A DNA stretch of 64,000 nt from Desulfatibacillum sp. (GCA_020725555.1 DYEU01000018.1:79113-143112), one strand, 5' to 3'. Numbered from the stretch's first letter, positions 983 through 64,000 are shown. The notes: a model not told the origin generated them from the sequence alone. Numbers and translations are program-made.

Positions 983-1414
983 TCAGGCGACCTCGGCCAG
1001 TGGCTTGATGAAGCGCGTGTTCGGGCCGAGCGCGCGCACGGCCTCGGTGACCTGGGCGGCCACGGTGACGAACTTCGTCGACTCGGCCGAGGAGATCCAG
1101 GAGAACTGGAGGCGTCCGGGCTCGATCCCCATGTGCTCCATCAGGTTCTTGAACAGCGCGAATTTGCGACGGGCGTAGTAATTACCTTCCAGGTAATGGC
1201 ATTCCCCGGGGTGTCACCCGGAGACCCAGACGCCGTCGGCCCCCTCCCGCAGGGCGGCGAGGAAAAAGTTGGGGCTCATGCGGCCGGTGCAGGGAATGCG
1301 GATCACGCGGATGTGGGGCGGGTACTCCATGCGGCCGACCCCGGCGAGGTCCGCGGCCCCGTAACTGCACCAGTTGCACAGGAACGCGACGATCTTGGGC
1401 TCCCAGTCCGACAT
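983..1414 (-). CDS. mvhD: MvhD-like (methyl-viologen-reducing hydrogenase delta subunit family) selenoprotein; in-frame UGA at 1214-1216 read as Sec
   Basis: The last 66 codons of ORF 1214..3721 ([25 protein letters not shown]...ADGVWVSG) stop at TGA 1214-1216. The same frame continues [18 protein letters not shown]...KPLAEVA to TGA 983-985. The joined 143 codons reproduce the MvhD G-C-H-P-G-x-C-H-Y motif with UGA at the first Cys position. Confidence 0.85.
1181..1197 (-). promoter_or_regulatory. candidate bacterial SECIS hairpin for the mvhD UGA
   Basis: RNA AUUACC-UGGAA-GGUAAU (6-bp perfect stem, 5-nt loop) starts 17 nt after the UGA. The loop occupies UGA+23..+27. Confidence 0.55.
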
Positions 1415-1428
1415 CTCGCTGCCTCCTC

Positions 1429-4400
1429 TCATACCGCTTCGCGCAGGCTGAAGATCTGGGCGAAGATCTGGTCGTTGTCGAAGCCTTTCAGGTGGATGGC
1501 CCCCGAGCGGCAGGAGGCCACGCACAGGCCGCAGCCCTTGCACAGGACGGGGTTGATCTGCGCGCGCTCGGCGAAGGGCCCCTTCTCGATCCAGGAGGGG
1601 GCCGAGTAGGGGCAGATCGACACGCACACCCCGCAGCGGCTGCACATCCGCGGGTCCACCTCGGCGACCGTGCCGCTCGTGTAGAGCGTCTTGCGCGCCA
1701 GCAGGGTGACCGCGCGGGAGGCCGCCGCCTGGCCCTGGGCGATCGCCTCGTCGATCGGCTTGGGGTAATGGGCGAGCCCGCAGAGGAAGACCCCGTCGGT
1801 GGCGAACTCCGAGGGGCCGAGCTTGGCGTGCCGCTCGACGAAGAAGCCGTCGGCGTTCAGGGGGACCTTGAAGAACTGGGCGAGGGCCTCGTTCTCCTGC
1901 GGCAGGATCGCCGTCGCCAGGGTCAAGAGATCGGCTTCGAGCTCGAGCTCGCGGCCGAGGATGGGGTCGAAGACGCGGACGAGGAGCCGGCCGCCCTCGA
2001 GGCGCACCTCGGGTTTGCGCTCGCGGGAGAAGCGCACGAAGATCACCCCCAGCTCGCGCGCCTTTTTGTAGAGCAGCTCCCGCTCCCCGTAGGTGCGCAG
2101 GTCCCGGTAGAGAACGAAGACGTTCATCTCCGGGTTCATCTCCTTGAGGTGGATCGCGTTGTCCACGCTGTGGGTGCAGCAGACGCGCGAGCAGTAGGGG
2201 CGCTCGGGCTCCCGGGAGCCCACGCACTGGATGAAGACGGCGCTCGCGAGCCGGCCGAGCGCCGGGTCGCCCTCGAGGATCCTGCGGTCGAGCTCGAGGC
2301 TGGTCAGGATGCGCGGGTCGGTCCCGTACCCGTACTCGCTCGGCCGGTAGGGCCGGCCGCCGGTGGCGAGGATGGCGACCCCGTGCTCGATCACCTGGCT
2401 GCCGCCCGCCCCCTCGAGGGTCGTCTTGAAGTTGCCGACGAAGCCCTCCACCCGGCAGATCGAGGCCCCGCGGTGCACCTGGATCCGGGGGTCGGCCTCG
2501 ACCTCGGCGATCATGGAGGAGAGCAGCTCCGGCACGGGCTCCCCGCGCGCCGTGCGGTAGAGGTTCCGGGCCTGCCCCCCGAGACGGTCTTCCTTCTCGA
2601 CGAGATGGACCGCGTAGCCCTGCCGCGCCAGGCTGCGGGCCGCGGCCATGCCCGCCAGCCCGCCGCCGACGACGAGGGCGCTCTGGTGGATTTCGAGCTC
2701 CGCCTCGCGCAGCGGGGAGAGCAGCGCCGCCTTTTCGACCGCCATGCGCACGAGGTCCTTCGCCTTGCGCGTGGCCAGCTCGGGGGCGTTCTTGTGCACC
2801 CAGGAGTCCTGGTTGCGGATGTTCGCCATCTCGAAGAGGTACTTGTTCAACCCGGCGTTGACGAGCGTCTCCTGGAAGAGCGGCTCGTGGGTCTTCGGCG
2901 TGCAGGCCGCGACCACGACCCGGTTCAGGTTCTTCTCGCGGATGATCTTGGAGATGGTCTCCTGGGTGTCCTGGGAACAGGAATAGAGGTTGTCGGTGGC
3001 GAACTCGACGTAGGGCAGGCTCTTGGCGTACTCGGCGACCGCCGGGACGTCGACGACGCCGGCGATGTTGGTCCCGCAGCGGCAGACGAACACCCCGATC
3101 CGCGGCCGCTCGTTTGCCACGTTCACCTCGGGGACCTTCTCCTTCGTGCGGGTCCGGGTGCCCCGGGCGGGGGCGAGGACCTCGCCGGCGGCCATCGCCG
3201 CCGCGCTCGCGTCGATCACCGACTGGGGGATGTCCTTGGGGCCCTGGAAGGCGCCGCAGACGTAGATGCCCGCGCGCGAGGAGGCGACGGGGGTGAGGCT
3301 CGCGGTGCGGCAGAAGCGCCCCGGGGTGAGTTCGAGACCCAGGCGCCGCGCGAGATCGAGAACCCCCGGGGAGACCTCCATGCCGATCGAGAGCACCACG
3401 AGGTCGAAGACCTCGGTGTGGAGGCTTCCGTCCTCGGCGATGTAGCGCACCTCGAGGTCGTCGGTCGTCCCCACCGGGGTCACCGAGTGCACCCGGCTGC
3501 GGATGAAGCGCACGCCGTGGCGTTCGCGGGCGTCGTCGTAGAAGCGCTCGAATTCCTTGCCGTGGGTGCGCATGTCCATGAAGAAGACCGCGCAGTCGAG
3601 CCCCGGGCCCACGTGCTCCTTGGCGATCACGGCCTCCTTGACCGCGTACATGCAGCAGACCGCGGAGCAGTAAGCGTTGTCGCAGCGGTTGAGGTCGCGC
3701 GAGCCCACGCACTGGAACCAAGCGATCTTCTTCGGGTCCCGGCCGTCCTTGGAGAGCCGCTTCACGTGGCCCTGCGTGGGCCCCGAGGCGGAGAGCATGC
3801 GCTCGAACTCCATGGCGGTCATCACGTTGGGCAGCTTCGCGTACTGGTAGTTGTCATAGCGCGCCGGGTCGAAGGGCACGAACCCCGGGGCGAGCACCAC
3901 CGCGCCCACGCGCACCGTGGAGGTGACCGGCTTCTGGTCGAAATCCACGGCCCCCGTCGGGCAGATCTTCTTGCAGGCGCCGCATTTGCCCTTCTGGAGG
4001 AAGATGCACTCCTCGGGGTCGATGGCGTACTTGAGCGGCACGGCCTGCGGGTACTCCACGTAGGCCGCCTTGCGCTTGGAGAGCCCCATGTTGTAGGTGT
4101 CGACGGTCTTCTTGGGGCATTTCTCGGCGCAGGCGCCGCAGCCGATGCACTTCTCGATGTCGATGTAGCGGGGGTGCTGCAGGAGCTCGACTTCGAAGTC
4201 CCCCGCCTCGCCCCGGATGTCCTGGACCTCGGTGAGCGTTTTCAGCTCGATGTTCAGATGCCGGCCGACCTCGACCAGTTTGGGCGAGATGATTCACATC
4301 GCGCAGTCGCAGGTGGGAAAGGTCTTGTCCAGCTGCGACATGACGCCCCCGATGGAGGGCCCTTTTTCCACGAGGTAGACGTAGTAGCCCGCATCGGCGA

Positions 4401-40790: not shown

Positions 40791-40806
40791 AGCAATTGCG
40801 ATGCCA
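40791..40806 (-). promoter_or_regulatory. sigma54 (-24/-12) promoter motif TGGCATCGCAATTGCT
   Basis: Exact match to TGGCA[CT]-N5-TTGC[AT] on the minus strand. It ends 12 nt before ATG 40778, and the intervening 12 nt contain the SD GAAGGAGGG. Confidence 0.6.
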
Positions 40807-40929: not shown

Positions 40930-41400
40930 TTACGGGTGCAGATTGCCCCCGGGCGAGGGGCTTTCCCGGAAACCGGGCATGCGGAATTTCTCATCCCCCA
41001 ACCGGCCGCTGCGGTAGGCGGCGAACACTTCACGGGCCTCGCCGCTCACCCCGCTGATCACGTCGATCCCCTCGGCTTCAAGGAAGCTGGAGAGGGTCTC
41101 GCTCACCGCGCCGCAGATCACCGTCCGCACCCCGAGACGCTTGATCTCGCCGGCGCGCTGGGAAAGGGAGGCGCCGGCGAAAGAAACCGTGCGCGCCTCG
41201 GCCTCGCCGCCCCCGCGCGGGTCCATCAGGGTGAGGCAGGTGCAGGTGTCGAGGACGGGGGAGACGCGGCCCCGGAACACGGGCACCGCAACCAGGGACT
41301 GCGGCCGGGGAGGGGGGGATGGCGAAGGGGGCTGCGGGAACGCGGGGATCCCAGGTCGTTTCCGGGCGTTTTCGCAGAAGATGCAGGGACGCCTGGCCAT
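40930..41400 (-). CDS. NifX/NifB-type (dinitrogenase FeMo-cofactor-binding-like) domain protein with a 32-aa Cys/Pro-rich N-terminal extension
   Basis: From Met48 of ORF 40930..41541. SLVAVPVFRGRVSPVLD parallels MRIAVAHWQGRISPVFD of gene 60930. ...VICGAVSETLSSFLEAEGIDVISG. Confidence 0.7.
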   Translation of the reverse strand: MARRPCIFCENARKRPGIPAFPQPPSPSPPPRPQSLVAVPVFRGRVSPVLDTCTCLTLMDPRGGGEAEARTVSFAGASLSQRAGEIKRLGVRTVICGAVSETLSSFLEAEGIDVISGVSGEAREVFAAYRSGRLGDEKFRMPGFRESPSPGGNLHP

Positions 41401-41468: not shown

Positions 41469-43043
41469 GGAAGCCGGGGCCCCCCCGCCGCAACGGGACG
41501 GACTGAAGAACGGACCCGTATAACCCAAAGGATCCGCGCACCCAGGCGTTCGGGGAGTACCGGAGTTAGGCTTCCGGCCGGGGTTGACAGGGAAAGCGAG
41601 AGGGAACAACATGCACCCGACGGTGGGCGAAAATCGCGGGTCGCCCCTGGGGGATTCCATGGAGCCGGTTTGCGAAGAGAACGAGCGGCGCCACCACGAG
41701 CTCATCCTCGACAGCATCGAGGAAGGGGTCTTCACGGTCGACCTCACCTGGCGCATCACCTCCTTCAACCGCGCCGCGGAGAAGATCACCGGCGTCCCGC
41801 GGGCCGAGGCCGTCGGCCGCCCCTGCTTCGAGGTCTTCCGCGCCGACGTCTGCGAAACCGGCTGCATGCTGCGCCGCACGCTCGAGAGCGAAACGCCGGT
41901 CGCCAACGTCCTGGTCCACATTTTCCGCGCCGACAAGAAGCGCATCCCCATCCGCATCAGCACCGCCCTGCTCAGGGACCCCGCGGGCCGGCTGGTCGGG
42001 GGGGTCGAGACGTTTCAGGACGTGAGCGCCCTCCAGGAACTGCGGCGGGCCCTGCAGCGGCAGCACCGCTTCGAGGACATCGTGAGCAAGAACCCGCGCA
42101 TGCTCAAGATCTTCGCCATGCTCCCGCAGGTGGCCGAAAGCGGGAGCACGGTGCTGATCGAGGGGGCGAGCGGGACCGGCAAGGAGCTCGTGGCGCGGGC
42201 GATCCACCACCACAGCCCGCAGCGCGAGGGCCCCTTCGTCGCCGTGAACTGCGGGGCGCTCCCCGACACGCTGATCGAGGCCGAGCTCTTCGGCTACAAG
42301 GCCGGGGCCTTCACCGACGCACGGCGGGACCGGGCCGGCCGCTTCGCCCTGGCCCAGAACGGCACGATCTTTCTCGACGAGATCGGCGACATCTCCCCCG
42401 CGCTCCAGGTGCGGCTGCTGCGGGTGCTCCAGGAGCGGGTCTACGAGCCCCTCGGCGCGGGAAAGCCCGTCCCGACGAACGCCCGGGTGATCGCCGCCAC
42501 GCACCGCGACCTGAGCCGTCTTGTCCGCGAGGAGAAATTCCGCGAGGACCTCTACTTCCGGGTCAACGTCTTCAAGATCGCGCTGCCGCCGCTCGCCGAG
42601 CGCCGCGAGGACATCCCGCTGCTCGTCGAGCACTTCATCGACCGCTTCAACCACCGCAGGGGCCGAAACGTCGCCGGGGTCGCCCGCGAGGCGATGGAAG
42701 CGCTCCTGCACCACGACTGGCCGGGAAACGTGCGCGAGCTCGAAAACGCGATCGAGCACGCCTTCGTCCTCTGCCGCGACGACACGATCCGGCTGGAGGA
42801 TCTGCCCGAGCCTCTCCAGGCGGCCGCCGCATCGGGCCGACCGGCCGCCGCGACCACGCTGCGGGACATCGAGCGGGCGGCGATCCTTGCCGCCCTCGAG
42901 CGCCACGGCGGCCGCAAGCTCGCCGCCGCCCGCGAGCTCGGGGTCGACAAGAACACGCTGCGCCGCAAGATGATCCGCCTCGGCCTGCGGCCGCCCCCCG
43001 CCGCCCGGGGCGTCCGGCCTGACCGGGGCGGGCAACCGGCCCC

Positions 43044-46276
<3,233 letters not shown>

Positions 46277-54960: not shown

Positions 54961-57047
54961 ATGGGCGCTTGCACCCGTCACCCCGATCGAGAAACGCGCT
55001 TCCAATGCCTGAAGCACGGCATCTGGATGTGCGAGGAATGCCTGGCCTGCCGCGACCCCGAACTGTACTGCAAGCACCGCTCCGCCTGCCCGATCTGGTT
55101 CATGGCAAAACGCCGCCGGCGCCAGGAGCAGGAGGAACAGGCCGCTTCCGCCGCCCGGCGCGTACACGTCAGGTTCGAACCGGAAGGCAAGACCGCCGAG
55201 GTGCCGGCCGGCGCCACCCTCCTGGAAGCCGCGGCGGCAGGAGGCGTCCACGTGAACGCCTCCTGCAGCGGCAAAGGCCTGTGCGGCAAGTGCAAGCGGG
55301 TGGTGGAATCGGGAGAGCTCGACAGGGAACCGACGGCGCTTCTCCGCGATGCGGAAACGCAAAAGCGCTGCGTGCCGGCCTGCCAGAGCCGGCTGCGGGG
55401 CGACGCCGTGGTCCGCATCCCGCCGGAGGCGATCGAGCGCAAGCTGAAGGTGGCCGGGATGGGCCGGGAAGCCACCTCGCGCCTGAAGGGGCGGGTCTGC
55501 CGGATCGATCCCCTGCTGCGGGAAATCCCGCTCGAACTCCCGCCGCCGACGATCGAAGACGCCGTCAGCGACCTGGACCGTATCAACCGCGCGCTCAAGC
55601 AGCACGGCGGTGACAGCGAGAAGCTTCACGTGGGGCTCACGGTGATGCGGCAACTCGCCGAGGCTGTGCGGGAAGGGCACTGGAAAGTGACCGCGTCGGT
55701 TGTCCGGCACGGCGGCTTCGACGAACTGCGGGAGGTTCGTCCCGGCGACGGCAACGAACCCTGCCTGGGGCTGGCCATCGACGTGGGGACCACGACGATC
55801 GTGGTCTATCTCGTGGACATGGCCGACGGCCGGATTCTTGCGGCCACCTCGGGCCACAACCGTCAGGCGGCCTGCGGCGACGACGTCATCAACCGCATCG
55901 TGTGCGCCGAAACGGAGGGGTGCGCAAGTTGAGCGAGATGGCGCTCGCCACCATCAACGGCCTGATCGGCGAGGCACTCGACAGCGCCGGGGCGCACGTG
56001 CGCCGGGTCAAGAACATCGTCGTGGCCGGCAACACGGTCATGACCCACCTGCTCCTGCAGATCGAACCCCGCTACATCCGCCGCACCCCCTACATCCCCA
56101 CGGTCGCGGAGTTTCCGATCCTCGAGGCCGGAACCATCGGACTCAAGGCCCATCCGGCCGCCGCCGTGTTCGTGATGCCCGGACCGGCCAGCTACGTGGG
56201 CGGCGACATCGTCGCCGGCGTCCTCTCCTCCGGCCTGCACCGCGAAGCCCCGCTCACGCTGTTCATTGACGTGGGGACCAACGGAGAAATCGTCCTCGGC
56301 AACCATGAGTGGATGCTGACCGCCGCCTGCAGCGCCGGACCGGCCTTCGAGGGCGGCGGCATCCGCTGGGGCATGCGCGCCGAAGCGGGGGCGATCGAGG
56401 CCGTGCGCATCCATCCCGAGACCGGGGAGCCGCAGATCCGTACCGTCGGCGGGGAGCCGCCGCGGGGGATCTGCGGCACGGGGATGATCGAGCTGATCGC
56501 GGAAATGCTCGCCGCCGGGATCATCGACCGCAGCGGGGCCTTCTCCGCGGACCGCGCCCACCCCCGGGTCCGCCGGATCCAGGACGAGTGGGCCTACATT
56601 CTGGTCCCCGCCGACCGCTCGCCGGTGGAAGAGGACATCGCCTTCAGCGCCTCCGACCTCCGCAACCTTCTCTACAGCAAGGCCGCCGTCTATGCCGGCC
56701 TGCGGACGCTGCTGCGCGAAGCCGGGCTGGAACCAGCCGCGGTGGAGCGCATCTGGATCGCCGGGGGCTTCGGACAATCCCTGGACGTCGACAAGGCGGT
56801 CCGCGTCGGGCTGCTCCCCGACCTGGAGCGCGGCCGCTTCCGCTATCTCGGAAACAGCACGATCGCCGGGGCCTACCTGTCGCTGCTGCCCGAGGCGTCC
56901 CGGCGGCAAGCGCGGGAGATCTGCCGTGCCATGACCTACCTCGATCTCTCCAGCCATCCCGGCTCTATGGAGGAGTTCACGTCGGCCCTGTTTCTGCCGC
57001 ACACCCACCTGGAGGCGTTTCCCAGCGCGACCCGCGCGGGCGCCTGA
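54961..57047 (+). pseudogene. RACo-type corrinoid-activation ASKHA ATPase (B-box-like Zn finger + 2Fe-2S ferredoxin + DUF4445/ASKHA), interrupted by a -1 frameshift in a G4 run near 55917-55920
   Basis: ORF 54961..55932 ends ...ACGDDVINRIVCAETEG-CAS*. ORF 55902..57047 continues in the -1 frame with ...GGVRKLSEMALATINGLIGEAL...FIDVGTNGEIVLG...CSAGPAFEGGGI...ICGTGMIEL. One extra G in gagGGGGtgc would fuse them into one protein of about 695 aa. Confidence 0.8.
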
Positions 57048-57070
57048 CGATTCACCCGGCCGTTGTCGTG

Positions 57071-57093
57071 GCCCGGGGGAGAAACACCCGGGC
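57071..57093. terminator. GC-rich hairpin between convergent genes (possible bidirectional terminator)
   Basis: GCCCGGG-GGAGAAACA-CCCGGGC, a 7-bp stem. No clear U-tract. Confidence 0.25.
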
Positions 57094-57194
57094 ACCCCTC
57101 GTCCGCTTCTTGGATCTTCTCCCGCCCGCGCGCCGGGCGGACCGGATTGCCGGAAAACGAGGCCGACCCCGGGATCCCGTCGGGGAAGAACCCC

Positions 57195-57692
57195 TCATCC
57201 GCCGAAGCGACGTTCGAGGGTGGACCCGCAGCCGGGACACCGCAACTTGAAGCACGGAAGGCCCTGATCCTCCTCGCTGCGGTAGCCGCAGCGCTCGCAG
57301 AAGCACCAGCCTGCGGGGTTGGGGCGGGAGGGGGGGGAGAGGGCCGGGGAAGCAGCAACCTTCTCGGCCGCCGGGGCGGCGTGGGCGGGAAAGGCGGGGA
57401 GGTGGTCCCGAATGGCCCCGCGCCGGCCTTCTTCGATCGCGATGCCGACCGCTTCAAGGACGGCCTTGGCGTTCGGGCCGGCGCTTCCGGTGATCACCCG
57501 CTCCACCCCCGCTGCGACCAGTGCCTCCGCGGCGCGGACGCCGGCACCGCCCGAGGCCTTCGCGCCCGGGTTGGGCTCGACGCGAAACGCCCCGCTTGCG
57601 AGATCCACGATCAAAAAATTCCGGCAGCGTCCGAGCGCGGGCTCGATCGGATCCTCGAGCGAACTTCCCTGGGTGGAAAAGGCGATTTTCAC
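57195..57692 (-). CDS. NifX/NifB-type domain protein fused to a C-terminal zinc ribbon
   Basis: GTG start (VKIAFSTQGSSLEDPIEPALGRCRNFLIVD...) after AAGGAGA. ...VITGSAGPNAKAVLEAVGI. Tail CFCERCG...CPGCG. Confidence 0.75.
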   Translation of the reverse strand: MKIAFSTQGSSLEDPIEPALGRCRNFLIVDLASGAFRVEPNPGAKASGGAGVRAAEALVAAGVERVITGSAGPNAKAVLEAVGIAIEEGRRGAIRDHLPAFPAHAAPAAEKVAASPALSPPSRPNPAGWCFCERCGYRSEEDQGLPCFKLRCPGCGSTLERRFGG

Positions 57693-57813
57693 GCGCGTCT
57701 CCTTGGGGCCGGGATGCAACGAACCGCGCCCGGCCCGGGCGCGAGCCCGCCTGGGCAAGGAGCCGGCCGGCGCTCCGCAGGGTGCGCTTCCGCAACCGGC
57801 CGGCCGCCGCGCG

Positions 57814-59133
57814 TCATTTGGCGGACTCCGGGTGAAACACCGCCACCTCCCTCAGGTCGTCTCCCAGGTAAGCCCGCTCGTTGGGGCCGAGGATCCCCAG
57901 CGCCAGGCAAAGGAGCGTCCAGAGGTGAATCACGTGGTAGCCCCCGCCGTAATGTTCGCTCAGTTCATGGATCTGGGCATGGCAGTTGTGGCAACCGGCG
58001 ATGCAGTACTGCGCGCCGGTCGCCCGGATCTGCTCGTCCTTGAGTCGGCCGAACTCGAGGCGCTGGGCCTTGAACCCCGATTGGAGAAACCCCCCGCCGC
58101 CGCCGCAGCAATAGTTGTTGGAGCGGTTGGGCTGCATGTCGATGAAGTTTTCCTCCCCCACCGCCGTCTTGACCACGAAGCGCAGGTCCTCGGCGATCGG
58201 ATCGCCGTAACTCTTGCGGACGATCTGGCAGGGGTCCTGGACCGTGAACTTGATCTTCAGGTCCCGGTTCCAATCGGCGTTGACCTTGAGCCGGCCCTCC
58301 CGGATCCACCGGGCGTAGTATTCGTAGATGTTTTTGACCGTGAACGTGTGCTCGATCTTGAATTTTTTCAGTCCTTCCAGGACCGAAAAGGTGACGTGCC
58401 CTCACTCGGTGTTGAGAAAGACCTTGCACCCCAACTCTTCGGCCTGCCGGGCCGCCGTCGCCGTGATGTGCTTCCAGGCCGCGTCGTCGCCCAGGAACAT
58501 GCAGTAATTCTCGCCACCCCAGCCCTTGGAGCCGTAGGTCCAGTCCGCACCGGCCAGATGCAGCAGCTTCCACAGGGGCACCATTTCGTCGGGTTCGGTC
58601 ACCGGCTCGCGCGAGTTCTGGTTGAGGAAGAATTCGGCCCCCGCCTTGTCAATGGGCGCCTCCATGGCGGCGAATTCCGGCTGCGCCTCGCGGTACTCCG
58701 CCAAGACGTCTTCGACCACGAAGCGGAAGTCCTCGGGCGAGGCGCCCATGGCGCTGCAGCTGTCGTTGCGCAAGGCCATGTCGCACGAACCGCGGATCCC
58801 TTTCGGGCGCTTTTCCCGGGGCCAGGCGGCACGCACGTTGTAGACCAGCCGTGGAATGTCGATTTTCATCGGGCAGACGTAGATGCATCGCTGGCATTGC
58901 GTGCACATCCAGACCCAGTCCGTGGCGAGGATCTCCTCGTCCAGGCCAAGGGCGGCCATGCGCAGAAACTTGCGCGGGTCCAGGCCCTCCAGCCCCGTCG
59001 CCGGGCAACCCGAGGAGCAGGCGCCGCAGGTGAGGCACAGGTTGAGATGGCCGCCTTCCGGGAGAATCTCCCGGACCTTTTCCATGAATGTCGTGCGTCG
59101 TTTTCCCCCCAAGCGAATGACGGTCTCCTCCAT
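57814..59133 (-). CDS. HdrD-like Fe-S oxidoreductase (2x[4Fe-4S] + two CCG domains), selenoprotein; in-frame UGA at 58402-58404 read as Sec
   Basis: The last 243 codons of ORF 58402..60786 (MEETVIRLGG...CLTCGACSSGCP...CTQCQRCIYVCP...KVFLNTE) stop at TGA. The same frame continues GHVTFSVLEGLKKF... into ORF 57814..58176 (NYCCGGGGG, CIAGCHNC). GAGGAGGAG RBS before ATG 59133. Confidence 0.85.
58365..58389 (-). promoter_or_regulatory. strong candidate SECIS hairpin for the hdrD-like UGA
   Basis: RNA UUUUCGGUCC-UGGAA-GGACUGAAAA (10-bp stem with one G-U pair, 5-nt loop) begins 13 nt after the UGA. The loop occupies UGA+23..+27. Confidence 0.65.
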
Positions 59134-59239
59134 CGGCGCTCCTCCTCGTGGTGGCGGGTGGCGGGGTTCACCCCGGGATTTCCGACCCGGACAAAGGCAA
59201 GTTTCCCCGGCCTGCGCCCGGGGCCTTGGAAGAGAAGCA

Positions 59240-59255
59240 AGCAAGACACATGCCA
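59240..59255 (-). promoter_or_regulatory. sigma54 (-24/-12) promoter TGGCATGTGTCTTGCT upstream of the hdrD-like selenoprotein gene
   Basis: Exact match to TGGCA[CT]-N5-TTGC[AT]. About 95-nt leader to ATG 59133. It lies 112-125 nt downstream of a TTGC-N5-GCAA palindrome and just after the activator gene. Confidence 0.7.
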
Positions 59256-59366
59256 TCCCGCCTCCAAGCGGGGCCGGGGCCGGCGATCGGCGCGGGGGGC
59301 GGGGCATTCGCCGCGGCACCTCGCGGCGGGAGGGGGCACCGCACCGGCGAGGCGGATTCGGCAACC

Positions 59367-59379
59367 TTGCAACATGCAA
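59367..59379. promoter_or_regulatory. palindrome TTGCAACATGCAA (TTGC-N5-GCAA), candidate activator binding site (UAS)
   Basis: Perfect inverted repeat TTGCA-ACA-TGCAA directly after the activator stop codon. It is preceded by GCAACC, giving GCAA-CC-TTGC. Confidence 0.4.
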
Positions 59380-59381
59380 TT

Positions 59382-60743
<1,362 letters not shown>

Positions 60744-60812
60744 GAAGCCTCCTCCGGCCGGCGGGCCATGGCCAAAGACCGTGCATCGTGCATTATAGGA
60801 AATGCTTTATTC

Positions 60813-60825
60813 TTGCATAACGCAA
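60813..60825. promoter_or_regulatory. imperfect palindrome TTGCATAACGCAA (TTGC-N5-GCAA), candidate UAS
   Basis: Lies in the only AT-rich stretch of the divergent intergenic region, 77-89 nt upstream of the -24 element at 60902. Confidence 0.35.
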
Positions 60826-60901
60826 GATGGAAATCCATCCCCGGCGCGGGGTGTGGGCCGCTTCCTGCTGCCCTCGGCCGCGCGGCCCCGTTTTTTCCGT
60901 A

Positions 60902-60917
60902 TGGCACCGCCTTTGCA
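60902..60917 (+). promoter_or_regulatory. sigma54 (-24/-12) promoter TGGCACCGCCTTTGCA
   Basis: Full consensus TGGCAC-N5-TTGCA. It ends exactly 12 nt before ATG 60930. Confidence 0.7.
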
Positions 60918-60929
60918 GGGATACTCGGC

Positions 60930-61331
60930 ATGCGGATTGCTGTCGCCCACTGGCAAGGCCGGATTTCTCCGGTCTTCGATGAAGCGCAGGATCTCTGGGT
61001 GGTGACGGTCGACGGCGGCCGGGAGATCGGGCGCGACCGCCTGCGGCTCAGGACGCGCAACCTCTTGGATCGGGTGCGAATCCTCTGCGAGCAGGAAATC
61101 GAGGTCCTGCTCTGCGGGGCGATCTCCTTTTCCCTGGAGCACGCTCTGGAAGCCGCGGGCATCCGGGTCGTGGGTTTCCTCGCCGGGGAGTGCGAACCGA
61201 TTCTCGTCTCGTTTCTCAACGCCCGCGGCCACGCCGCCGGCCCGGTGCGTTTCGCGACGCGACGGCGATTCCCCCGGCCGGAGCCCCGGCAGGGCAAGGC
61301 CCGCCCGCCGACATCCGGCCGCGGGCGATGA
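60930..61331 (+). CDS. NifX/NifB-type domain protein (133 aa)
   Basis: Last part of ORF 59148..61331: MRIAVAHWQGRISPVFDEAQDLWVV...VLLCGAISFSLEHALEAAGIRVVGF. Confidence 0.75.
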   Translation: MRIAVAHWQGRISPVFDEAQDLWVVTVDGGREIGRDRLRLRTRNLLDRVRILCEQEIEVLLCGAISFSLEHALEAAGIRVVGFLAGECEPILVSFLNARGHAAGPVRFATRRRFPRPEPRQGKARPPTSGRGR

Positions 61332-61363
61332 CCCGCGAAACCTCTACCTGGGAGATGAACGCC

Positions 61364-61981
61364 ATGAAAGTCGCCATCAGCGCCAGCGCACCTTCCCTCG
61401 AGGCCCCGCTGGATCCCCGATTCGGCCGTGCCCCGTGGTTCCTGATCGTCGATCCCGAAACCCTCGCCGTCGAGGAAATCGCCAATCCGGCCGCCTCCGG
61501 TGCCGGCGGCGCCGGCATTGAGGCGGCCCGGGCCATCGCCGCACGGGCGGTAACGAACGTGCTCACCGGCCGCTGCGGCCCGAATGCCGCAGCGGCGTTG
61601 TCCGCCGCGAACATCGTGTTCGTCGAGGGCTGTTCCGGAACGGCGCGCGAAGCCCTCGAGCGCTTTCTCGCCGCAGCCCCTCCGGCCGCGGAGGCCGGGC
61701 CGGCGGCGGGCCGTCCCGCCGCGGACCGCCTGCCGCAACCACCCGGCCCTGGACCCGGCGGCGCACCCCCCATGCGCGGCGGCGGGGGTCGCGGGGGATG
61801 CGGGCGGATGCGCGGCGGCGGCGGAGGACGCGGAGGGGGAGGCGGCGGGAGGGCGGGAAGTTTCGGTCCTCCCCGAACCCCCGTAGGCTCAACCCTCGAG
61901 GAAGAGGCCGAGCGGCTGCGCCGGCGGCTTGCGGAAATCGAAGAGCGTCGCGGAACGCGCATCCCGCCCTCCCGCCGGTGA
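61364..61981 (+). CDS. NifX/NifB-type domain fused to a Gly/Arg-rich linker and C-terminal coiled coil (DUF5320-like tail)
   Basis: From Met59 of ORF 61190..61981: MKVAISASAPSLEAPLDPRFGRAPWFLIVD...VLTGRCGPNAAAAL. Then GGGGRGGCGRMRGGGGGRGGGGGG and LEEEAERLRRRLAEIEERR. Confidence 0.75.
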   Translation: MKVAISASAPSLEAPLDPRFGRAPWFLIVDPETLAVEEIANPAASGAGGAGIEAARAIAARAVTNVLTGRCGPNAAAALSAANIVFVEGCSGTAREALERFLAAAPPAAEAGPAAGRPAADRLPQPPGPGPGGAPPMRGGGGRGGCGRMRGGGGGRGGGGGGRAGSFGPPRTPVGSTLEEEAERLRRRLAEIEERRGTRIPPSRR

Positions 61982-61992
61982 GCGGCAGGGTC

Positions 61993-63000
61993 ATGGCCGC
62001 TCGCCCGCCGCGTCCCCCGGAAGGGGGGTTCCTCTACGGCCCGGTCCCCTCGCGGCGCCTCGGGCGCTCGCTCGGCGTGGATCTCGTCCCGTTCAAGACC
62101 TGCAGCTACGATTGCGTCTACTGCCAGCTCGGGCGCACGACCTGCCGGACGCTCGAGCGCTCGGAGTACGTGCCGACGACGCAGGTCCTCGATGCGATCG
62201 CGGCATTTCGGCGAAGCGGCGCGGCCGCCGATTTCATCGGCATCGCCGGCTCCGGCGAGCCGACGCTGCACGCCGGGATCGGGGACATCATCGCCGGCAT
62301 CCGCCAACGGACGCGCCTCCCGGTCGCCGTGCTCACCAACGGCTCCTTGCTCTGGGACGCGGAGGTGCGGCGGGAGCTCTCCCGGGCGCACGTGGTGATT
62401 CCTTCGCTGGACGCCGGCGGGCCGCGAACCTTCCGTCGCGTCAACCGCCCCCACCCCGGGCTCGCATTCGAAACGGTGGTGGAGGGGCTGGCCGCGTTCG
62501 CCGCCGGGTTCCGGGGAGAGATCTGGCTCGAAGTCATGTTCGTCGCCGGGATCAACACCGACCTGCGCGAGGTCCGCCGCATCGCCCGCCTGGCCGACCG
62601 CATCGGCCCGCGGCGCATCCAGCTCAACACCGTCGTCCGGCCGCCCGCCGAGCGCTTTGCACGCCCCGTCCCGCGGGAAGATCTCGCGCGGCTGGCCCGC
62701 TGCCTGGGCGGGAGGGCGGAATGCATCGCCGACTTCCGACCGGACGCAGAGACCGCGACACCCCGCAGCCGGGCGGGTGAGCGAGCGATTCTGGAATTGC
62801 TCGCCCGCCGCCCCTGTACGGTATCGGGGATCGCCGACGGGCTCGCCATCCATCCTCAGGAAGCCGTGAAGCGCCTGGACGATCTCCTGCGCCGGGGGCT
62901 CGTCGCGGTGAACGAGCGGGACGGCGAGCGCTACTTCGGCCTCAAGCGGATCCGCACGCCGCGGGTCCGCAGCGGCCTTCCGGAAAGGAGCCTTCCATGA
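61993..63000 (+). CDS. radical SAM protein (COG0731-like)
   Basis: From Met66 of ORF 61798..63000: MAARPPRPPEGGFLYGPVPSRRLGRSLGVDLVPFKTCSYDCVYCQ (CxxxCxxC), GSGEPTL. C-terminal winged-helix-like tail. Confidence 0.85.
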   Translation: MAARPPRPPEGGFLYGPVPSRRLGRSLGVDLVPFKTCSYDCVYCQLGRTTCRTLERSEYVPTTQVLDAIAAFRRSGAAADFIGIAGSGEPTLHAGIGDIIAGIRQRTRLPVAVLTNGSLLWDAEVRRELSRAHVVIPSLDAGGPRTFRRVNRPHPGLAFETVVEGLAAFAAGFRGEIWLEVMFVAGINTDLREVRRIARLADRIGPRRIQLNTVVRPPAERFARPVPREDLARLARCLGGRAECIADFRPDAETATPRSRAGERAILELLARRPCTVSGIADGLAIHPQEAVKRLDDLLRRGLVAVNERDGERYFGLKRIRTPRVRSGLPERSLP

Positions 63001-63905
63001 CCCGCACCCCCTCCTCCCCCTCTTCCTCCTGCGGCACCTGCGACCGGCCCGACTGCTCGGCCAAGGCCCCCCGGCCGGGGGAGGGCGAGGCCGAATTCGT
63101 CGAGCGCCGGGAACTCGAGGCACGCCTGTGCCGCATCCGACACCGCATCGTCGTCCTCTCGGGCAAGGGCGGCGTCGGGAAAAGCACGGTGGCCGTCAAC
63201 CTGGCCGCGGGGCTGCTGCAGGAAGGCCACACCGTCGGCCTGCTCGACGTGGACCTTCACGGCCCCAGCATCCCCACGATGCTCGGGCTGGAGCGGCAGC
63301 GTCTCGGCGGCAACGACCGGGAAATCCACCCCGCGGACGTGGGCGGGCTCAAGGTCGTCTCCATCGGCTTCTTTCTGTCCTCGCCGGACGACGCCGTCAT
63401 CTGGCGCGGGCCGCTCAAAATGGGGGCCATCAAGCAGTTTTTAAAGGACGTGGCCTGGGGTGATCTCGATTTCCTGGTGATCGACTCCCCGCCCGGGACC
63501 GGGGACGAACCGCTTTCGGTTTGCCAACTGATCGGGCGCCTGGACGGTGCGGTGATCGTGACCACCCCCCAGCGGGTGGCGGCGGTCGACGTGCGCAAGT
63601 CGATCACGTTCTGCCGCCACCTTCAGGTCCCGGTCCTGGGGGTCGTGGAGAACATGAGCGGTTTTGCCTGCCCGAAGTGCGGGGAGGTGACCCAGATCTT
63701 CCGGACCGGCGGCGGGCGCAGGATCGCCGAGGACATGGGGATCGCCTTCCTCGGGTCGATTCCGCTGGACCCGGCGCTCGCCGACTCCGGCGACGGCGGC
63801 GAGCCCTTCCTCCGCCGCCACGCCGACTCGCCGACGGCGGAGCGGCTGCGACGCTTAATCCGGCCCATCGCCGCGCTCGCCGCCGCAGAGCAGCGGCCGG
63901 CCTGA
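62997..63905 (+). CDS. Mrp/NBP35 (ApbC-like) P-loop ATPase, Fe-S cluster carrier family
   Basis: Deviant Walker A SGKGGVGKST, ...DSPPGTGDE..., CPKCG motif, N-terminal CGTCDRPDC. ATGA overlap with the radical SAM stop. Confidence 0.88.
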   Translation: MTRTPSSPSSSCGTCDRPDCSAKAPRPGEGEAEFVERRELEARLCRIRHRIVVLSGKGGVGKSTVAVNLAAGLLQEGHTVGLLDVDLHGPSIPTMLGLERQRLGGNDREIHPADVGGLKVVSIGFFLSSPDDAVIWRGPLKMGAIKQFLKDVAWGDLDFLVIDSPPGTGDEPLSVCQLIGRLDGAVIVTTPQRVAAVDVRKSITFCRHLQVPVLGVVENMSGFACPKCGEVTQIFRTGGGRRIAEDMGIAFLGSIPLDPALADSGDGGEPFLRRHADSPTAERLRRLIRPIAALAAAEQRPA

Positions 63906-63929
63906 GGCAGAGGGCGCGGGACGGCCCCC

Positions 63930-64000
63930 TCAGGCCGCAGGCACCGCCGGCGTGCCGCCTTCCTCCACCACCGGCAGGCTGACGACGAAGAGACTCCCGC
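63930..64000 (-). CDS. 3' end of a histidine-kinase-like gene (partial, runs off the window)
   Basis: The minus frame reads ...GSLFVVSLPVVEEGGTPAVPAA* with TGA at 63930-63932. G-S-x-F-x-V-x-L-P is the usual HATPase_c terminus. Confidence 0.4.
   Translation of the reverse strand, partial: GSLFVVSLPVVEEGGTPAVPAA

Follow-up and report, generated by a model that had tools for sequence, protein, structure and literature searches.

An OrpR-type activator between two sigma-54 promoters probably forms a redox-gated regulon of NifX-like carriers and an HdrC-HdrB selenoprotein in Desulfatibacillum

Introduction

Why does a bacterium whose genome holds no nitrogenase keep a cluster of NifX-like genes, and what is a sigma-54 activator gene doing between that cluster and the gene of an HdrD-like selenoprotein? 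These questions are raised by a locus of Desulfatibacillum sp. (assembly GCA_020725555.1, DYEU01000018.1:79113-143112) at positions 57195-63905 of the 64-kb stretch of DNA analysed here, which we call the window and from whose first nucleotide all coordinates are counted. The activator gene separates a minus arm, consisting of the selenoprotein gene (hdrD) and a NifX-zinc-ribbon gene, from a plus arm of two NifX-like genes, a radical SAM gene and a gene for an Mrp/NBP35 ATPase. The orange protein (ORP/OrpR) system is a redox-switched system known from strict anaerobes. Its cellular role has been unsettled for more than ten years, with cell division and Fe-S trafficking both proposed. A preliminary description of the window, made from the DNA alone, had considered clusters of the present type functionally undefined; this view has to be given up, as the cluster corresponds to orp/OrpR, a system that has been investigated in Desulfovibrio vulgaris (PMC8359166, PMC3897727, PMC6345978). 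We propose that the locus is probably an OrpR-type, redox-gated sigma-54 regulon, a reading carried by the family marks of the activator, by the promoters and palindromic sites on both of its sides and by the ORP-type gene content of the plus arm.

Results

The activator carries the marks of the OrpR family

Gene calls were based on Pfam and NCBIfam searches of the window proteins, and the domains found agree with the seven genes and their placement in the preliminary description. The best NCBIfam match of the Mrp protein is MrpORP, which pointed to the orp cluster of Desulfovibrio vulgaris Hildenborough (DvH). There, OrpR (DVU2106) is encoded between two divergent sigma-54 operons and was shown experimentally to activate both (PMC8359166, PMC3897727). 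The PAS domain of DvH OrpR binds a [4Fe-4S] cluster, and activity of the protein is confined to low redox potential; as the only tested member of its family it responds to redox potential and not to O2 itself, and its regulon comprises the orp operons only (PMC8359166). Hallmarks of OrpR are three fully conserved PAS cysteines (C52, C61 and C65) with an acidic residue (D/E) at position 54 (PMC8359166), and a GAFTDA loop, a variant of GAFTGA (PMC4641369).

The window activator has the three-domain architecture of OrpR, with PAS_9, Sigma54_activat (232 bits), AAA_lid_14 and HTH_8 domains in Pfam. Its PAS domain contains C53-x-D55-x6-C62-x3-C66, in the same spacing as the DvH residues, GAFTDA is present as in DVU2106, and, as with the OrpR gene, a sigma-54 promoter preceded by a palindromic site is found on either side. 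For comparison, the phylum was sampled for full-length MrpORP genes and the loci around them were retrieved. The activators adjoining these genes are 54-62% identical to the window activator over nearly the full length; C-x-[DE]-x6-C-x3-C occurs in all 21 ORP-linked activators and in none of the nine other activators of the same loci, and GAFTDA in 19 of the 21. In a tree the motif-bearing activators form one clade, with weak support (83/73), and long branches separate the others. By these sequence marks the activator encoded at 59382-60743 is a member of the OrpR family, and by analogy with DvH OrpR its PAS domain would bind a [4Fe-4S] cluster and sense redox potential. The features of the locus are as follows.

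57195-57692, minus strand: gene for a NifX (Di-Nase) protein (Pfam Nitro_FeMo-Co, 60.6 bits) with a C-terminal CxxC...CxxC zinc ribbon
57814-59133, minus strand: hdrD, HdrD-like selenoprotein gene (Fer4 and CCG domains, Pfam)
58365-58389, minus strand: selenocysteine insertion sequence (SECIS)-like hairpin
58402-58404, minus strand: UGA selenocysteine codon, in frame
59240-59255, minus strand: sigma-54 promoter P2, TGGCATGTGTCTTGCT
59367-59379: predicted upstream activator site of P2, palindrome TTGCAACATGCAA
59382-60743, minus strand: gene for the PAS-AAA+-HTH sigma-54 activator, OrpR family
60782-60792: second conserved site, TGCATCGTGCA
60813-60825: predicted upstream activator site of P1, palindrome TTGCATAACGCAA
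60902-60917, plus strand: sigma-54 promoter P1, TGGCACCGCCTTTGCA
60930-61331, plus strand: nifX1, NifX-like, Orp5/Orp7 type (MRIAVAHWQGRISPVFD...)
61364-61981, plus strand: nifX2, NifX domain (Orp8 type) with a Gly/Arg-rich tail and a short coiled coil
61993-63000, plus strand: radical SAM gene (KTCSYDCVYCQ) with a C-terminal winged helix
62997-63905, plus strand: mrp, Mrp/NBP35 Fe-S carrier ATPase

Promoters and palindromic sites are conserved in the genus

The proposal of a dedicated sigma-54 activator flanked by two consensus promoters stands, and upstream sites and conservation in eight genomes of the genus can now be added to it. Scanned over the 64 kb, the pattern TGGCAY-N5-TTGCW gives three matches where 0.04 would be expected, namely P2 at 59240-59255 (minus strand), P1 at 60902-60917 (plus strand) and a third promoter at 40791-40806 (minus strand); rpoN is present in the genome, and the promoter scan found no sigma-70 promoter. 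P2 lies about 105 nt before the ATG of hdrD, and P1 ends 12 nt before that of nifX1. The palindrome TTGC-N5-GCAA occurs just twice in the 64 kb, on either flank of the activator gene: the copy at 59367-59379, with its end 3 nt from the stop codon of the activator gene, precedes P2 by 112-124 nt, and the copy at 60813-60825 lies 77-89 nt upstream of P1. A further site, TGCATCGTGCA at 60782-60792, is found 32 nt upstream of the main P1 site. The looser pattern TGCA-N3-YGCA is found five times in the window, and three of these occurrences flank the activator gene. The core TGC-N5-GCA is the sole feature that the local palindromes (TTGCA-N3-YGCAA) have in common with sites near Desulfovibrio-like clusters, for example GGATGCGTTTTGCACCC.

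Eight loci of the genus were compared, the present window and seven from sister genomes (L029-L035); all genomes of the genus encountered here are metagenome-assembled. P2 stands at an equal offset from the activator stop codon in seven of the eight; the eighth, L035, has an insertion that leaves the spacing between site and promoter roughly unchanged. Across the genus the distance from P2 to its site is about 122 nt. Five loci keep the site unaltered; L031 has it with a single mismatch, L030 in degenerate form, and in L035 the insertion has shifted it. This arrangement of stop codon, site and promoter is held irrespective of the gene downstream. On the other side, the P1 site, the second site and the promoter are all present in 8/8 loci, though the downstream genes differ, and the gap between P1 and the nifX1 ATG is 12-14 nt throughout. 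A Shine-Dalgarno sequence does not fit into so short a gap, and the sigma-54 transcript is accordingly predicted to be nearly leaderless throughout the genus.

Two further sigma-54-like sequences were considered. The promoter at 40791-40806 was rejected as part of the regulon, having no TGCA-N3-YGCA nearby and adjoining a paralogous activator gene. This second OrpR-family activator (41584-43092) stands beside the fourth NifX-like gene of the window (40930-41250, minus strand) and, as no TGCA-N3-YGCA lies near it, probably has a binding site and a regulon of its own. For GGGCGC-N5-GTTGCA, a sigma-54-like sequence before the NifX-zinc-ribbon gene, we make no claim of a promoter, as it has three mismatches and is not seen in orthologues.

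The plus arm is an ORP-type gene set

The count of four small NifX/NifB-type proteins in the window is borne out, two of them, encoded at 40930 (24.6 bits) and 60930 (24.7 bits), falling just below the Pfam cut-off of 26.3; nifD is absent from the whole genome (100% complete), in line with the preliminary remark that nitrogenase genes are missing. Our main reference for the plus arm is a cluster (L081) with the Desulfovibrio gene set on one strand: orp5 (NifX with Gly/Arg stretch and zinc ribbon), orp4, orp3, orpR, mrpORP and orp8. The protein encoded at 60930 has an NCBIfam match to the Di-Nase part of MrpORP and resembles the Orp5-position protein of this cluster. The protein encoded at 61364 scores 69.5 bits on Pfam Nitro_FeMo-Co, and its residues 1-101 are 49% identical to the protein at the ORP (Orp8) position. 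The preliminary description mentioned DUF5320-like genes in clusters of this kind; for this protein Pfam reports Nitro_FeMo-Co alone at E <=0.01, and no DUF5320. A NifX-type domain followed by a cationic tail is also described for IssA of Pyrococcus furiosus, which serves thioferrate storage (Vaccaro 2017, cited in PMC6345978 and PMC8351635). Compared by layout alone, the 61364 protein has the same combination, its tail being Gly/Arg-rich; it differs from IssA in the coiled coil at its end and in having an N-terminal domain of orange-protein type.

MrpORP (Orp9, DVU2109 / Dde_3202; PMC6345978) and the window Mrp share a deviant Walker A motif (GKGGVGKS), a CPKC motif and N-terminal cysteines (CGTCDRPDC). 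The score on the MrpORP model (NF041136) is 380.7 bits against a cut-off of 450, with positions 2-255 of the 365 in the profile covered, so that of the two-domain MrpORP the P-loop part alone is matched. As the preliminary description had observed, mrp is coupled to the radical SAM gene through ATGA at 62997-63000, where its ATG overlaps the stop codon of that gene. A convergent gene follows mrp, which makes it the last of four genes in the plus operon; the terminator scan showed no excess over chance, and operon ends are therefore deduced from convergent genes. Judged by its sequences, the plus arm is an ORP-type set of a NifX-like protein, a NifX protein with a Gly/Arg tail, a radical SAM enzyme and Mrp.

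The minus arm encodes an HdrC-HdrB selenoprotein

The open reading frame 57814-59133 is open only if the in-frame TGA at 58402-58404 is read through, which gives an HdrD-like protein of 439 residues with selenocysteine at residue 253 in the motif LNTE-U-GH. The suggested selenocysteine is upheld by several lines of comparison. A single in-frame TGA is found in nearly all selenoprotein orthologues across the order, and homologues without it (L193-L196) have TGC (Cys) at the same codon, reading LNTE-C-GH. A hairpin with an 11-bp stem and the loop GGA begins 13 nt past the UGA here, and a hairpin of 8-11 bp at 13-16 nt after the UGA is present in 20/20 UGA genes and 0/4 Cys genes. selB is present in the genome. 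An Rfam scan of 57000-64000 at E <=1 returned no known RNA family or SECIS model, so the assignment of the SECIS element rests on the fold and on the comparison of homologues. Decoding of the UGA as selenocysteine is well supported by these sequence features.

In alignments with solved Hdr complexes, the N-terminus of the selenoprotein corresponds to HdrC and its C-terminal CCG domain to HdrB. Like HdrC of the methanogen Hdr it has an N-terminal domain with two [4Fe-4S] clusters, and like HdrB an intact C-terminal CCG domain (C-x37-CC-x36-CxxC); unlike in HdrB, the first CCG-like half is degenerate. In our own reading of the sequence, the selenocysteine appears to occupy the first-half position that matches the second cysteine of the CxxC of the second half. 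Scores on related equivalog models all remain far below the cut-offs (HmcF 168 vs 750, TmcB 160 vs 735, DsrK 113 vs 400), and unlike in HdrD, HmcF, TmcB and DsrK systems the operon holds no membrane or HdrA partner. The protein is probably a ferredoxin-dependent disulfide reductase.

The second gene of the arm (57195) starts with GTG preceded by AAGGAG and encodes an ORP-type N-terminus. Its zinc ribbon (residues 126-161) matches ribbons that adjoin MinD-ferredoxin genes in four loci (L081, L090, L092 and L095), and a ribbon of this type follows Orp5 in a canonical orp cluster. P2 had been proposed to read into both genes. For hdrD this stands; between hdrD and the NifX-zinc-ribbon gene lies a gap of 121 nt in which no terminator was found, and two sister genomes have an opposite-strand gene at this point. 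Together with the decay of the gene in L029, these intervening genes make co-transcription no more than plausible. In L029 (10440-10560) the match is confined to some 33 N-terminal residues, after which there is a stop codon.

The radical SAM enzyme belongs to a large family beside NifX and Mrp genes

The radical SAM protein has its CxxxCxxC motif at C37/C41/C44 and a winged helix with an invariant RRPC motif. It belongs to an uncharacterised, COG0731-like family whose members are labelled wyosine synthetase by genome pipelines. The family is very large, all 8000 scored candidates passing E 1e-10, and members about 50% identical occur in Planctomycetota, Chloroflexota, Myxococcota, Acidobacteriota, Actinomycetota and other phyla. 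Their neighbourhoods were analysed in 80 loci from many phyla with about 5 kb of flank. A NifX-like gene lies within 3 kb in 50/80 loci, Mrp is a neighbour in 40/80, a MinD-ferredoxin ATPase in 42/80, and a sigma-54 activator that strongly resembles enhancer-binding proteins (>250 bits; PAS motif not checked) in 20/80. An HdrD-like gene is found in two of the 80, both of this genus. Look-ups of individual loci agree with this pattern. The synteny is thus widespread as far as NifX-like, radical SAM and Mrp genes are concerned, and among these 80 loci is restricted to the genus for the HdrD-like gene.

A relation to NifB suggests itself from the layout: the radical SAM gene adjoins genes for NifX-fold carriers, as if the enzyme acted on a carrier-bound cluster. 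However, the window protein differs from NifB in that it does not match the NifB model (TIGR01290) and has no conserved ligands for auxiliary clusters; the only invariant cysteines of the family are C37, C41, C44 and C275. A sequence search of the PDB gave no match. Foldseek with an AlphaFold model (pLDDT 77) recovered a generic radical SAM barrel, with PFL-AE, viperin, NifB, TYW1 and MoaA all at a TM of about 0.5. Since PFL-AE and viperin match the fold as well as NifB does, a NifB-like identity was rejected. Separately, we observed that some family members (P0027, P0045 and P0068) are fused to a SAM-dependent methyltransferase domain (514 residues), and that an unfused member (L106) lies beside an ArsP-type permease and a methyltransferase.

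The cargo of P2 varies and the two arms need not be functionally linked

Within the genus the HdrC-HdrB selenoprotein is the constant member of the minus arm, and what precedes it varies. Both here and in L029, hdrD is the first gene after P2; L032 and L035 have a small PilZ-like gene (no Pfam match) in between, and L030, L031, L033 and L034 have the PilZ-like gene together with cooS, encoding a Ni-CO dehydrogenase (619 bits on TIGR01702, cut-off 478). As a side observation, a conserved GAF-domain protein of about 200 residues is encoded next to hdrD in five sister genomes (L031, L032, L033, L034 and L036), with a sigma-54 promoter of its own (TGGCATG-N4-ATTGCT) and in the company of conserved proteins of 87 and 121 residues that have no Pfam match; none of these three genes is in the window.

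Such cargo raises the question whether the carriers serve the enzymes with which they are regulated. The NifX-like carriers, the radical SAM enzyme and Mrp could constitute a dedicated maturation line that builds or repairs the metal centres of the co-regulated enzymes, these centres being the CCG domain's non-cubane [4Fe-4S] clusters and, for the CooS of sister species, its Ni-Fe-S C-cluster; the two arms would then be functionally linked. Consistent with this, the client-like HdrCB selenoprotein and CooS share the activator with the carrier genes in eight genomes, and in one genome (G001) mrp, with its own promoter and site, is directly divergent from hdrD and the NifX-zinc-ribbon gene. MrpORP hands Fe-S clusters to its ORP partners in vitro (PMC6345978), and NifB is a precedent for a radical SAM domain acting with a NifX domain (PMC8351635). 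Against it, the radical SAM/NifX/Mrp set is near an HdrD-like gene in just the two loci mentioned, and in other families of the order selenoprotein orthologues 77-83% identical to ours are sited with hdrA, mvhD and metF/metV, with no NifX or Mrp alongside. The radical SAM enzyme also lacks conserved auxiliary-cluster cysteines and is no nearer in fold to NifB than to other members of the superfamily, and the genome's own cooS, 55% identical to that of the sister regulons, is sited elsewhere (contig C30, 136.5-140.2 kb; L191, L101). We therefore consider a maturation line unlikely. A direct maturation link between the arms is possible, with support confined to this genus; shared redox gating of oxygen-sensitive metalloproteins is the simplest reading.

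Another explanation would be that the arms are merely juxtaposed, the promoter of hdrD being served by a different activator and the regulon consisting of the plus arm only. Sigma-54 activators are numerous in the genome, a similar PAS cysteine motif is present in at least five, the cargo of P2 varies, and hdrD orthologues of other families adjoin unrelated PAS activators (L042 and L044). Yet the P2 site shares the form TGCA-N3-TGCA with both P1 sites, three of five occurrences being at the activator flanks, and the geometry of stop codon, site and promoter is constant across the genus regardless of the gene that follows, so that we judge this explanation to be quite improbable. In another family of the order (L041) the selenoprotein gene is preceded, at 60 nt, by a sigma-54 promoter, and the gene of a paralogous OrpR-family activator lies divergent from that promoter. 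As judged from these loci, the linkage between OrpR-type activators and the HdrD-like selenoprotein is real but narrow, comprising this genus and L041. That the PAS cysteine motif senses another signal, such as CO, sulfide, iron or selenium supply, to which the regulon responds, is very unlikely: cooS is within the regulon of sister species, a motif-bearing activator adjoins the genome's own cooS and the family has expanded into paralogues with differing neighbours, but DvH OrpR, the sole member tested, answers to redox potential and controls the orp operons only (PMC8359166).

Related loci in the same genome

A second ORP-type cluster (L103) is found on the same contig (C12), roughly 14-22 kb beyond the end of the window. 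It encodes two DUF134 proteins, one of them fused to a NifX domain, an Orp3/Orp4-type pair of MinD-ferredoxin ATPases and an HFGHCE-type NifX protein; an activator with the PAS cysteine motif (CRDVFLGVPCLAAC) is encoded upstream. The two ATPases, MinD-like with two ferredoxin motifs, are homologues of the Orp3/Orp4 pair (47% and 34% identity), and no sigma-54 promoter was detected at this cluster. A gene that carries the PAS motif CHEAFGAPFCGGHC is found 1.4 kb away from the genome's own cooS.

Other genes of the window and its surroundings were noted in passing. A frameshift close to a run of G (about 55915-55932) splits a RACo-like gene at 54961-57047 (plus strand), which encodes a 2Fe-2S ferredoxin domain, the RACo linker and middle region and an ASKHA domain; in the nearest relative (L029) there is a single open reading frame of 741 residues; the split reflects either an assembly error or a recent pseudogene. 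At 1214-4089 (minus strand) an MvhD-like open reading frame stops after 72 residues (...IPCTG) and adjoins a large HdrA-like gene; to judge from their in-frame stops, these look like further selenoprotein genes. A flx/hdr-like cluster follows just beyond the window end (L102).

Discussion

Several features can be read directly from the DNA: which genes are present and in what order, the promoters and conserved sites, the marks that place the activator in its family, the selenocysteine codon and the synteny. They are consistent with the following mechanism. The activator would bind palindromes with a TGC-N5-GCA core, a single copy directly after the activator stop codon and a pair ahead of nifX1. 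At low redox potential, by analogy with DvH OrpR, the cluster-bearing activator would open both sigma-54 promoters, so that the two arms are co-expressed. P1 would drive nifX1, nifX2 with its Gly/Arg tail, the radical SAM gene and mrp, whose products, going by homology, may act as metal-sulfur cluster carriers, an Fe-S carrier ATPase and a radical SAM enzyme. P2 would drive a variable cargo with one constant member, the HdrC-HdrB selenoprotein, by homology a ferredoxin-linked disulfide reductase; the transcript here probably continues into the NifX-zinc-ribbon gene, and in four sister species the PilZ-like gene and cooS would precede the selenoprotein on it.

Several observations weigh against an OrpR-type regulon. 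The Orp3/Orp4-type ATPases are encoded outside the regulon (57195-63905), some 19 kb past the window end. Mrp ends at 63905 with no C-terminal Di-Nase domain and stays below the MrpORP cut-off. The published DvH OrpR site, GGGCGYRTTTTGCGCCC, is absent from the window, and the core proposed to be shared is our own reading of the sequences of a few Desulfovibrio-like loci. A search for IHF sites (WATCAR-N4-TTR, <=2 mismatches) found none between sites and promoters. In the tree the window activator forms a genus-specific branch, and its paralogue at 41584-43092 is nearer to Desulfovibrio-like OrpR than the activator at 59382-60743. Finally, with at least five PAS-motif activators in the genome, cross-talk is possible.

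If the proposed regulon is correct, the genus offers a natural experiment, in which one type of activator and one geometry drive recognisable redox enzymes beside ORP-type carriers. The HdrCB selenoprotein and the Ni-CO dehydrogenase of sister species become candidate clients or partners of these carriers, and an uncharacterised radical SAM family emerges as a regular neighbour of NifX, Mrp and MinD-ferredoxin genes across many phyla. The Fe-S-PAS activator family has also multiplied, to at least five copies in this genome, beside different metalloenzyme loci. Speculatively, the OrpR-type switch might be a redox gate with exchangeable cargo that in this lineage couples ORP-type carriers to HdrCB selenoprotein and Ni-CO dehydrogenase clients, the carrier set being an unrecognised assembly or repair line for complex Fe-S clusters in which the radical SAM enzyme acts in a NifB-like manner on a NifX-held cluster; we regard this extension as unlikely.

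The closest known counterpart is the orp system of DvH (DVU2103-DVU2109; PMC8359166, PMC3897727, PMC4641369). It too has one PAS-AAA+-HTH activator with C-x-D/E-x6-C-x3-C and GAFTDA, a sigma-54 promoter on either side of the activator gene with palindromic sites about 90-125 nt upstream, and a cargo of NifX-fold (Di-Nase) proteins and an Mrp/NBP35 ATPase in a genome that has no nitrogenase. The window differs in its cargo, since an arm with the HdrC-HdrB selenoprotein (and cooS in sister species) replaces orp5-orp4-orp3, a radical SAM gene is inserted before mrp, Mrp has no Di-Nase domain, and the Orp3/Orp4 homologues are 19 kb off, beside DUF134 genes. It also differs in its regulatory layout: the site reads TTGCA-N3-YGCAA in place of GGGCGYRTTTTGCGCCC, no IHF site is seen, P1 is 12 nt before the start codon, and the activator gene and the minus arm are co-oriented and not divergent. 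Thus the architecture is already known, and what the present locus adds are the selenoprotein and cooS cargo, the split cluster layout, the local form of the site and the multiplied activator family.

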